Positions 19,048 through 24,362 of a stretch of 48,586 bases of DNA are shown here, in pieces. The notes beneath the pieces are model-generated. The model was not told the origin of the DNA, ran no database searches, and saw nothing but the letters and a program-made list of their open reading frames with translations. Position 1 is the stretch's first letter, and every line of letters starts with the position of its first letter. This DNA comes from Bryobacterales bacterium (GTDB lineage: Bacteria; Acidobacteriota; Terriglobia; Bryobacterales; Bryobacteraceae), in NCBI GenBank assembly GCA_003136215.1, contig PLDO01000523.1:16708-65293 (forward strand), given 5' to 3'. A program made the translations under genes and the position numbers.

Positions 19048-21993
19048 ATGGAAGACAACAATACACCCCATGAATCTCTCCTGGCAGAACTGCTCGCCGC
19101 GAACGGGCGGGAATACGGTTTCGCGGCGGCGCTGGGCGCGCTGCTGTTACTGAACGTTACCGGCGTGTTCCGCTTCATCCTGGGTCTGGACACCGCGATT
19201 CTGGTCACCGTGCTGGCCGGGTACAAGACGTTTTACAACACCATCTCCGGGCTGCTGGAGAAGACCATCTCGGCGGACCTGGCGCTGTGCATCGCGGCGA
19301 TCGCGGCGCTTTCTGTGGGCGAGTACGCGGCCGCGGCCGAAACCATGTTTATCGTGATGGTGGGGGAGACGCTGGAATCGTTCGCCGCCGGCCGCACCGA
19401 AGCGGCCATCCAGCGATTCGTGGCGCGCTTGCCGCGCACCGCGCGGCGCGTGGCGGACGGCCGCGAGGAAATGGTGGACGCCGCGTCGCTCGTGCCCGGT
19501 GAGTGGATCGTGGTGAAAGCCGGCGAACGCATTGCCGCCGACGGCTTGATCGAGCAGGGAGCTTCGACTATCGACGAGAGCTCGATCACGGGCGAGTCTC
19601 TGCCGCAATACAAACGGACCGGCGACGAGGTCTTCTCGGGCACCTTGAACGGCAACGGCCTGTTACGCATCTGTGTGACTCGCGCCGGCGGCGAGACCAC
19701 GCTGGCCCGCGTCGTGGAACTGGTGAAGGAGGCCAGGGAAAGGCGCGCGCCGGTGGAGCGTTTGGCCGATCGCTACGCCAGGTACTTCCTGCCCGCGCTG
19801 CTGCTCGCCGGCGCCCTCACCTGGTATTTCACGCGCGACTGGCTGCGCACCGTGGCGGTGCTCGTCGTCGCCTGCCCGTGCGCGCTGATTCTAGCCACGC
19901 CGACGGCGATGGTCGCCGCCATCGGCGGTCTCGCGCGCCGCGGTATTTTGGTGCGCGGCGGCGGCGTCCTGCAGAACGCCGCCAAGGTGGATGCGGCCGT
20001 GTTCGACAAAACCGGCACGGTCACCGAGGGACATTTCGAGATCGCCAAAGTGATTCCGCTTGGCCGGAGCGAGGACGAAGTTCTGGCTCTGGCGGCGGCG
20101 TGCGAACGAAGTAGCGATCACGCGTTGGCACGCGTGATCGTGAACGAGGCCAGGCGGCGCGGACTGGCGCTTGCCGAGTCCGCCGACGCCCGCGCGATTC
20201 CTGGTCGAGGGGTTGAGTGCTGCCTGAACGGAAAGCTCGTCCGCACCGGCAGCGCTGCGTATGTGGTGGAACAGGTGAGCGGGAACGTGGCGCTGGTGCA
20301 GGCCGAAGCCGATCACCTCGGCGCCACGGCGGTGCTGGTGTCGGAGGATGGGCAACTGGCGGGCGCCATCCTGCTGCGCGACCGCGTCCGCGAGGGCGTT
20401 CGCGAAGCGGTCCGCGGCCTACGTTCCATGGGGATCGCCTACCAGGCGATGCTCACGGGCGACCGGCGCGGTCCGGCGGAAGCCATGGCGCGCGAGATCG
20501 GCATCGATCGCGTGGAGGCTGAACTGCTGCCCCAGCAGAAGCTGGAGCGCGTGCGCCAGCTGGCGTCGCAAGGTCGCACCGTGGCGATGGTGGGCGACGG
20601 CATCAACGACGCGGCTGCGCTGGCCGCGGCCAGCGTGGGCATCGCGGTGGCCGGCGCGAGCGACATCACGGCCGAGGCCGCCGGGGTGGTCTACCTGCCA
20701 CACTCGCTGGAGAAACTGCCACAATTGTTCGTGGTCAGCCGGCGTGCGGTCGAGACCGCGTGGCTCAATATCGTGCTGTTCGCCGGGGCGCTGAATCTGC
20801 TGGCCGTGCTGGCCTGCGCCACCGGCAAACTGGGACCGATGGGCGCCGCGCTGACGCACCAGCTTTCCTCGTTCTGCGTGATGATGAATTCCCTGCGGCT
20901 GCTGAGAGTGGAGGGCGGGCACGGGTGGTGGAGCCGCCCCCGCGCGGTCCTCGGCAGGTTGGGCGAGATCGACGGGGGAGCACGAGTCCGAGCTGCGCTC
21001 GGATGGACAAGGCGGAGCCTTATCCCACTGGCCGGAGCGTTGTTGCTCCTCAATGGATTCTACGCGCTGGGACCAGACGAGGAAGGCGTCATCGAGCGCT
21101 TCGGAAGAAAGATCGCGCCCTTCAGCATCCCCGGTCTGCACTACAAGCTGCCATGGCCCATCGAGCGGCTGACGCGCATCGCGCCGCGCCGCGTGAGGGT
21201 GGTGGAGATCGGGTTCCGTTCGAACGCCGGGGCGGCCTACACGGAGCCCTCGGCGTACGAGTGGAACGTGCAGCATCGCGGCGGGAGGTTTGAGAGCCGG
21301 CCGGAGGAATCGTCCGCGCTCACCGGGGACCAGAACATGATCGAGCTGAATGCCAGCGTGCACTACGACGTGCCCCACGCGGACGCCTTTCTCTTCCGCC
21401 AACTGGATGGCGCCGCCACGGTGCGCGCGGCGGCCGAATCGGTGATTCACGGGATTGCTTCCACCACACCGCTGGACGCGCTGCTGACCACGGGCCGTGA
21501 GGCGATCGAGGCTCGGGCCCAGGCCGAATTGCAGCGGCGCCTGGACCGCTACGAGACCGGCGTGCGCGTAATCCGTGTCAAGTTGGAGGACGTGCATCCT
21601 TCCAGCGATGTGGTGGATGCGTTCCGCGATGTCTCCGCGGCGTTCGAAGAAAAGAATCGCGCCATCAACCAGGCGCAGGGATACCGCGCCGAGCAGATCG
21701 CGCTGGCGCGGGGGAGCGCGCGCGCGTTGGCCGAGGGCGCGCGGGCATATGCGCTGGCACGCGTCAACCGGTCCAACGGCGACGCCGGCAGGTTCGCATC
21801 GCGGGAGCAGGCGTACCGCACCGCGCCGGGGGTAACGGAGACACGGCTCTATCTGGAAGCCATGGAGCAGGTTCTGCCGGGCAAGAAGAAGCTGATCGTG
21901 GATTCCAGTAAAGGGCGAAGACACCTGCTGCTGCTGGAAGACGGTGTGGAGATTGCGCCGCCGGGTGCGGCCATCACTGGGGCGAAGGAGTAG
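19048..21993 (+). CDS. P1B-type (CPC) P-type ATPase fused in frame to a C-terminal HflK-like SPFH/band-7 domain
   Basis: GGGAGGGG lies upstream of the ATG. ATPase motifs are ITGES, ACPCALILATP, DKTGTVTEG, MLTGD and VGDGINDAAALAAA, ending at NSLRLLR (~aa 625). There is no HMA domain. After a linker and a TM segment (SLIPLAGALLLLNGFYAL) comes a full HflK-like domain: GVIERFGRK, AFRDVSAAFEEKNRAINQAQGY, TETRLYLEAMEQVL. The frame is uninterrupted. Confidence 0.85.
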   Translation: MEDNNTPHESLLAELLAANGREYGFAAALGALLLLNVTGVFRFILGLDTAILVTVLAGYKTFYNTISGLLEKTISADLALCIAAIAALSVGEYAAAAETMFIVMVGETLESFAAGRTEAAIQRFVARLPRTARRVADGREEMVDAASLVPGEWIVVKAGERIAADGLIEQGASTIDESSITGESLPQYKRTGDEVFSGTLNGNGLLRICVTRAGGETTLARVVELVKEARERRAPVERLADRYARYFLPALLLAGALTWYFTRDWLRTVAVLVVACPCALILATPTAMVAAIGGLARRGILVRGGGVLQNAAKVDAAVFDKTGTVTEGHFEIAKVIPLGRSEDEVLALAAACERSSDHALARVIVNEARRRGLALAESADARAIPGRGVECCLNGKLVRTGSAAYVVEQVSGNVALVQAEADHLGATAVLVSEDGQLAGAILLRDRVREGVREAVRGLRSMGIAYQAMLTGDRRGPAEAMAREIGIDRVEAELLPQQKLERVRQLASQGRTVAMVGDGINDAAALAAASVGIAVAGASDITAEAAGVVYLPHSLEKLPQLFVVSRRAVETAWLNIVLFAGALNLLAVLACATGKLGPMGAALTHQLSSFCVMMNSLRLLRVEGGHGWWSRPRAVLGRLGEIDGGARVRAALGWTRRSLIPLAGALLLLNGFYALGPDEEGVIERFGRKIAPFSIPGLHYKLPWPIERLTRIAPRRVRVVEIGFRSNAGAAYTEPSAYEWNVQHRGGRFESRPEESSALTGDQNMIELNASVHYDVPHADAFLFRQLDGAATVRAAAESVIHGIASTTPLDALLTTGREAIEARAQAELQRRLDRYETGVRVIRVKLEDVHPSSDVVDAFRDVSAAFEEKNRAINQAQGYRAEQIALARGSARALAEGARAYALARVNRSNGDAGRFASREQAYRTAPGVTETRLYLEAMEQVLPGKKKLIVDSSKGRRHLLLLEDGVEIAPPGAAITGAKE
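20988..21028 (+). repeat. Copy 2 of the 41-nt double-hairpin repeat, inside the ATPase-SPFH ORF
   Basis: CCGAGCTGCGCTCGGATGGACAAGGCGGAGCCTTATCCCAC, 39/41 identical to copy 3. It is translated as (R)AALGWTRRSLIP at aa ~647-661, exactly between the pump and SPFH parts. Confidence 0.85.
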
Positions 21994-21999
21994 AAGACG

Positions 22000-23879: not shown

Positions 23880-24362
23880 ATGAAACGGAAAATGCAGGCA
23901 CGCGCATTGGCGGTGGCCGCGCTCGCGGCGCTGTTGGGACTTGGAGTCGCGCGTAAGGCTGGTTGGATCGGGCCGGCGGTCACGCCCGCCGGCACCGAGG
24001 ATGCGGTTTCCGCGGCCATCTATGCCACCATCGATGCGGCGCGGGCAGGAGACGCCAGCCGCTATCTGGCCGGCTATACGGGGCCGATGCGGGTCGCCCT
24101 CCAACGGTCGCTGGACGATGGCGGCGCTGCCGCGTTCGCCCGCTACTTGCGAAGCTTGGATGCCGGAGTGAAGGGCCTCGCGGTTTGGGTAGAAAGCGGC
24201 GCCGGGCGGGAAGCGAAGGCGCGGGTAGAGTATGTTTACCAGGAGCGGAATGAAGTGCAGGTGCTGCACCTGGAGAAGGACACGGGCATCTGGCGAATCG
24301 CGCGAACCGAGGGCGATCAAGCTGTCAAGGCGGCGATCCCGTACGGAACGCCGATCCGGTAG
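23880..24362 (+). CDS. Small membrane-anchored/secreted protein, unknown function
   Basis: The ATG is the nucleotide right after the hflK-like TAG. Signal/anchor sequence MKRKMQARALAVAALAALLGLGVA. 160 aa with no motif I recognise. Confidence 0.65.
   Translation: MKRKMQARALAVAALAALLGLGVARKAGWIGPAVTPAGTEDAVSAAIYATIDAARAGDASRYLAGYTGPMRVALQRSLDDGGAAAFARYLRSLDAGVKGLAVWVESGAGREAKARVEYVYQERNEVQVLHLEKDTGIWRIARTEGDQAVKAAIPYGTPIR

Follow-up and report, generated by a model that had tools for sequence, protein, structure and literature searches.

A four-gene Acidobacteriota cassette that joins a P1B-type pump to an HflK-type SPFH domain

The fusion gene and its downstream partners

We analyzed a 48,586-nucleotide stretch of contig PLDO01000523.1 (positions 16,708 to 65,293, forward strand) from the Bryobacterales bacterium assembly GCA_003136215.1, hereafter the window, and focused on a cassette of four genes within it: one encoding a P1B-type ATPase and an HflK-type SPFH domain as a single protein, followed by genes for HflC, a second and unfused HflK (HflK2), and a small anchored protein. 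All coordinates given below are window positions. The fusion gene occupies 19048-21993(+), where the open reading frame (ORF) listing gives an ATG start and a single continuous in-frame 981-codon frame, just as an original prediction made from the sequence alone had described it. Its 981-aa product, as delimited with Pfam and NCBIfam, consists of the ATPase, a linker, a transmembrane (TM) helix, and an HflK SPFH/coiled-coil domain.

The P1B heavy-metal ATPase core extends over residues 77-618 (19276-20901(+)), as defined by the heavy-metal P-type ATPase model TIGR01525, which the ATPase half matches at 540 bits against a cut-off of 346. The same half also exceeds the cut-off of the Cu+ CopA model TIGR01511 (412 bits, cut-off 397) and likewise that of the Cd model TIGR01512 (all NCBIfam). 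Pfam places E1-E2_ATPase at residues 128-298, Hydrolase (HAD) at 314-528, and Band_7 at 675-878, so that all three families proposed with the original prediction for a profile search were matched on the ORF. No N-terminal HMA (metal-binding) domain was found in the fusion by the Pfam scan, in agreement with the earlier description of a P-type ATPase lacking such a domain.

Beyond the last helix of the ATPase (TM8), a cytoplasmic linker (residues ~620-656, 20905-21015(+)) leads to the TM helix of the HflK part, located by hydropathy scan at residues 657-675 (21016-21072(+)), and then to the HflK SPFH and coiled-coil domain at 21058-21993(+), which is predicted to be periplasmic. This domain matches TIGR01933 over residues 671-962 (191 bits, cut-off 159) and covers model positions 1-257 of 261, with the solved E. 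coli (Escherichia coli) HflK structure (7vhp) matching the same part at E 1e-31; the claim of a complete HflK-type band-7 domain preceded by its own TM helix was therefore well founded. Because P1B pumps keep both their N- and C-termini in the cytoplasm and the fusion adds the helix at 657-675, whose spacing fits periplasmic SPFH domains in the hydropathy scan, the SPFH/coiled-coil region would come to lie in the periplasm. The fused HflK domains would thus reach the same compartment as those of E. coli HflK (PMC12005517), and the fusion would be a 9-TM protein whose SPFH half could join HflC and HflK2 in the membrane.

The three downstream genes follow with minimal spacing. HflC (22000-22890(+); TIGR01932, 213 bits) starts 6 nt past the fusion stop and carries an N-terminal TM helix at residues 8-29 according to the hydropathy scan. 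HflK2 (22887-23879(+); TIGR01933, 208 bits) overlaps HflC by 4 nt in an ATGA and shares 40% identity with the fused HflK domain. The gene for the 160-aa protein (23880-24362(+)) opens at 23880, the base after the HflK2 stop, and every one of these spacings is as originally described. While the 160-aa protein has no Pfam or NCBIfam match, its AlphaFold2 model, built with 35 homologs (confident, with a predicted local distance difference test score, pLDDT, of 86.5), consists of an N-terminal helix at residues 2-26 followed by an NTF2-like alpha+beta domain, corresponding to a hydrophobic anchor at nt 23883-23957 and a globular part at nt 23967-24362. Foldseek matches of this model are to NTF2-like, ketosteroid-isomerase-like, and SnoaL-like proteins (E ~1e-4), and its closest ESM Atlas cluster is an Acidobacteriota hypothetical family (TM-score 0.74). 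A scan for promoters and terminators between the cassette genes gave no signal; together with the tight spacing, this suggests co-transcription with translational coupling, and hence that the fusion, HflC, HflK2, and the small protein form one operon.

Distribution of the cassette and integrity of the junction

The pump-HflK fusion is a widespread and conserved family in Acidobacteriota, neither a one-off nor private to this genome. A search seeded on the HflK half returned 883 database proteins of 539-1717 aa, and among the 120 matches listed nearly all were 950-1020 aa long and contained all three domains; these homologs bear automatic labels such as 'Cu+-exporting ATPase' or 'MAG: FtsH protease activity modulator HflK [Bryobacteraceae bacterium]'. 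A scan of genome contigs located 220 loci encoding the fusion, all but one labelled as Acidobacteriota, and gene order was counted in the 80 of them that were kept. These are metagenome-assembled genomes of Acidobacteriota (Bryobacteraceae, Solibacteraceae, Bryobacterales, Terriglobia, Acidobacteriaceae, Ca. Sulfotelmatobacter, and Ca. Acidiferrales), with a single locus labelled Acidimicrobiia, probably through a binning error. HflC follows the fusion in 75/80 loci, HflK2 in 72/80, and the small protein in 58/80, with most of the missing genes falling at contig ends. Three distant families of the phylum also carry the cassette, with its gene order unchanged and at ~42% identity.

Across the 41 genomes nearest to this one, the fusion occurs patchily within the genus but is common at the family and order levels. 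In one family of the same class (f5), none of 15 genomes had a match even to the HflK half with this query, and no plasmid record with the full fusion appeared among the best 5000 matches. The loci come mostly from peat, permafrost, bog, and soil, and the window's own DNA is present in many peat metagenome runs. Both the fusion and the four-gene synteny thus recur when Acidobacteriota are searched, their co-location extends beyond this genome, and the original framing of the fusion as rare or private does not hold against 883 proteins, 220 loci, and a recurrent cassette. The domain scores far exceed their cut-offs and 80+ independent genomes share the architecture, so the fusion is more than a chance joining.

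The junction itself contains a feature that could mislead an assembler. A ~29-bp palindromic repeat with the hairpin CCGAGC..GCTCGG lies in-frame in the linker at 20984-21012(+), with a second copy in the window at 47567-47595(-); the genome has ~76 copies, whereas a control with the reversed pattern gave 0. In four peat and wetland runs covered by Logan contigs, with a local depth of ~100x at the repeat, all contigs break at 20986-21030 and none bridges the junction. Both the repeat and the breaks speak for a mis-assembly across the repeat that joined separate ATPase and HflK genes. Yet the ORF is continuous and in-frame, the linker copy is confined to a clade of close relatives (among them loci L002 and L022), and 80+ genomes from across the phylum, some of them closed chromosomes, carry the same fusion with other linkers that are free of the repeat. 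Since the fusion recurs with repeat-free linkers in dozens of genomes, we regard it as genuine despite the contig breaks, and the comparative data largely refute an assembly artefact, which we consider hardly credible.

One closed genome (G037; locus L017, contig C1) has the fusion split into three overlapping frames with HflC, HflK2, and the small protein intact downstream, possibly reflecting a pseudogene or sequencing errors.

The genes upstream of the cassette vary among loci (amidohydrolase, methyltransferase, DUF4394-globin, outer-membrane efflux/ABC, or unknown), and no conserved metal regulator of the MerR, CsoR, or CopY type was found beside the cassette in the sampled loci. In the window, a glycoside hydrolase family 5 (GH5) cellulase with an IPT/TIG domain lies just upstream (16278-18896(+)), with a GH5 homolog upstream in 13/80 loci, and a hybrid two-component sensor kinase with a Reg_prop propeller, Y_Y_Y, HisKA_3, and HATPase domains is found farther upstream (9813-12953(+)). 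Directly 3' of the cassette is a URO-D-like protein (24392-25501(+); PF01208, weak match) that is not kept in related loci, and elsewhere the window encodes a TonB-dependent receptor (40334-43360(-)) and a zf-HC2 anti-sigma factor (43442-45271(-)).

The metal site of the pump

The pump has the DKTGT, TGE, and GDGxND motifs of a P-type ATPase. We scored its residue conservation in an alignment of 106 homologs, in which the catalytic motifs DKTGT and GDGIND are kept. The CPC motif of TM6 (ACPCALILATP; CPC at 19873-19881(+)) is invariant in 106/106 and is also present in distant family members. In the HP motif of the N-domain, represented in the fusion by SDHAL at 20113-20127, the His (20119-20121(+)) is found in 105/106 homologs, while Pro follows it in 6/106 in the genus clade, where Ala, Met, or Thr stands instead; some order-level relatives have SDHP, and distant members have SEHL or SDHI. 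Alignment to CopA of Archaeoglobus fulgidus, the best solved-structure relative of the pump, indicates that across the 106 homologs TM7 keeps the Asn of the CopA Tyr-Asn pair with Leu or Val in place of the Tyr.

The TM8 segment, ALTHQLSSFCVMMNSLRLL (20848-20904(+)), follows the pattern xHQ(L/I)(S/A)SF.VMMNSLRLL across the same homologs. Its conserved His (20857-20859) is invariant even in the most distant members and appears to occupy the position of the CopA Met in a register that we mapped by aligning the pump with A. fulgidus CopA in HMMER; the Met-x-x-Ser-Ser motif of CopA is consequently absent, with Ser-Ser and the Asn retained. In A. fulgidus CopA, the corresponding Met711 contributes to the Cu+ site (PMC9433437).

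Relative to CopA of A. fulgidus and Legionella pneumophila, the pump therefore shares the actuator, phosphorylation, and nucleotide domains, the DKTGT and GDGxND motifs, the TM6 CPC, the TM7 Asn, and the TM8 Ser-Ser, and differs from them in its missing HMA domain, its TM7 Leu/Val for Tyr, its TM8 His for Met, its variable HP Pro, and its C-terminal HflK domain of ~330 aa. By hidden Markov models and best solved matches it is closest to the P1B-1 Cu+ pumps, and given a TIGR01511 score above cut-off and A. fulgidus CopA as the best solved relative, we judge a pump of the Cu+/Ag+ type most likely. The conserved His-for-Met and Leu-for-Tyr changes nonetheless leave the choice among Cu+, Ag+, and another soft metal unsettled, and a conserved atypical TM site of this kind points to a distinct substrate or mode of handling within the P1B pumps.

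The original prediction had quoted the CPC, SDHAL, and TM8 motifs, all of which are present, and had called the selectivity residues atypical and the ion unclear. The first of these two judgements stands in that the unusual residues are conserved in the family, although loss of the HP Pro is lineage-specific and some relatives keep SDHP; the second stands in that the substrate is unsettled, although a Cu+/Ag+-type pump is now the most likely assignment.

HflK/HflC partners and a proposed scaffold for the pump

The genome containing the window is 93% complete, and its only above-cut-off HflK and HflC proteins are the three encoded in this operon, with FtsH encoded outside the cassette. Among 41 relatives, all above-cut-off HflC genes (22/22) adjoin a gene whose product combines a membrane protein with an HflK-like SPFH domain: 20 lie beside the pump cassette, one beside an ArsP-permease-HflK fusion, and one beside a 4-TM-SPFH fusion. 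An HflKC system that serves the fused membrane proteins would be expected to leave this pattern. That HflK/HflC pairs accompany HflK-domain membrane proteins, and not FtsH, is the strongest indication for an SPFH scaffold serving the pump, and the HflK/HflC system of this lineage seems to be dedicated to the pump rather than to FtsH. On this count, the early suggestion of an SPFH system dedicated to a transporter proves to be a good reading.

The same counts bear on a different role for the fusion, in which HflK and HflC act as general modulators of FtsH and the fused domain, instead of serving a pump-specific scaffold, tethers the pump to FtsH-HflKC so that its quality can be controlled or its degradation regulated. 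The partnership of HflKC with FtsH is established (PMC12005517, PMC12048511) and the genome has FtsH and no other above-cut-off HflKC, both of which speak for such a tether, but no FtsH gene lies near the cassette, and above-cut-off HflC is missing in relatives without an HflK fusion, which almost certainly have FtsH. Because of this absence, HflKC appears to track the fusions and not FtsH, which weakens the tether; we consider it possible but unlikely.

Several further proteins carry an HflK-like SPFH domain in other company. In genome G035 (locus L016, C1:3459687-3464295 region), an ArsP_1 permease (PF03773, ~10 TM), a TM helix, and an HflK-like SPFH domain form one protein, whose gene is followed by HflC and another SPFH protein. 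Genome G012 (locus L018, contig C69) encodes a 511-aa protein with four N-terminal TM helices and an SPFH domain, near which lie HflC and an unfused P-type ATPase with 37% identity to the ATPase of the fusion. A search for long HflK proteins also surfaced a 947-aa database protein (P0121) made up of AAA_22 (ExeA-like), a TM helix, a periplasmic segment, a TM helix, and an HflK-like SPFH domain; BLAST comparison of the small cassette protein with P0121 gave no significant similarity.

Our preferred interpretation, to which we assign a probability of roughly 50%, is that the products of the four-gene cassette permanently embed a P1B-type metal exporter in an SPFH scaffold of the HflK/HflC kind. 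The mechanism is drawn by analogy with E. coli, where 12 HflK and 12 HflC form a cage around FtsH hexamers (PMC12048511, PMC12005517). The cassette shares with E. coli FtsH-HflK-HflC a co-encoded pair of HflK-type and HflC-type proteins, each with an N-terminal TM helix and a periplasmic SPFH/coiled-coil region. Unlike that system, it has one HflK that forms the C-terminal part of a P1B pump, so that the partner joined to HflK is the pump and not FtsH; it co-encodes a free HflK2 and an anchored NTF2-like protein but not FtsH; and in its lineage above-cut-off HflC occurs only with HflK fusions. An SPFH ring or cage would form from the fused HflK domain together with HflC and unfused HflK2, so that every pump is tethered and clustered within a single microdomain of the membrane that has a vault on its periplasmic side. 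HflK positions left vacant by pump-fused subunits would go to HflK2, thereby setting the number of pumps per ring, and the assembly would include the anchored NTF2-like protein on the periplasmic side. Localization, stability, or activity of the pump would likely be affected, and possibly also the site at which the exported metal ions are released.

A transporter held by an SPFH scaffold has precedents. In Staphylococcus aureus, FloA, a flotillin, draws the transporter IsdF into microdomains of the membrane and is required for its proper placement and function (PMC10147376), and a stomatin-like ring of FliL surrounds the flagellar stator (PMC6426602); with HflK/C, these are precedents for SPFH scaffolds that organize transporters or ion-translocating machines. 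The cassette resembles the FloA/IsdF microdomains in that an SPFH scaffold is physically associated with a transporter, here by covalent fusion; FloA/IsdF differs in being non-covalent and in pairing a flotillin, not HflK/HflC, with an ATP-binding cassette (ABC) transporter instead of a P-type pump. In the literature searched for pump-HflK or pump-SPFH fusions, we found no paper on a pump that is covalently fused to HflK and accompanied by an HflC of its own, in line with the statement in the original prediction that no such fusion was known.

Stomatin-family proteins regulate ion channels, as MEC-2 does for MEC-4 and podocin for TRPC6. This family behavior, together with the FliL ring around the stator, would also accommodate a fused SPFH domain that acts alone, in a stomatin-like manner, on the lipid microenvironment or gating of the pump while HflC and HflK2 make up a complex of their own. 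Joint assembly is favored instead by the tight operon, in which HflC and a second HflK accompany the fusion, and by the fact that HflC strictly co-occurs with the fusions, and we find an SPFH domain working alone distinctly unlikely, more so than the FtsH tether.

Several points weigh against building the pump into an SPFH scaffold. We infer both the position of the pump within an HflK/HflC assembly and any effect of that position on pump function. As FtsH is encoded in the genome, the HflK/C of the operon may also, or mainly, serve FtsH. Linker length is variable and poorly conserved (45-84 aa across homologs), giving no hint of a fixed geometry, and the substrate metal is uncertain for a site without the TM7 Tyr and TM8 Met of CopA. 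Lastly, a complex prediction for HflC (residues 30-296), HflK2 (52-330), and the small NTF2-like protein (28-160), each entered as an alignment, returned no verdict, its ipSAE of 0.02 speaking neither for nor against binding.

In a bolder form of the scaffold, pump-fused HflK, HflK2, and HflC would close into a vault of the HflK/C type that holds up to a dozen Cu+-type pumps; these would export into an enclosed periplasmic chamber, with the NTF2-like protein inside receiving or buffering the ion. We hold this to be a long shot, the least probable of the arrangements in which the fusion is real; if true, the vault would be an SPFH 'export chamber' instead of a protease cage.

Taken as a whole, the pump-SPFH system is real and conserved, and it is probably dedicated. 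To our knowledge, HflK/HflC cages are known almost only as compartments for the FtsH protease. A conserved HflK-pump fusion, in genomes that have HflC only alongside fusions of this kind, makes a non-FtsH role of SPFH cages testable, and suggests that these cages can be general membrane-protein compartments, with a P-type pump working inside one. Such a compartment could change metal-ion export or periplasmic hand-over. HflK-fused pumps are abundant in the Acidobacteria of peat and permafrost.

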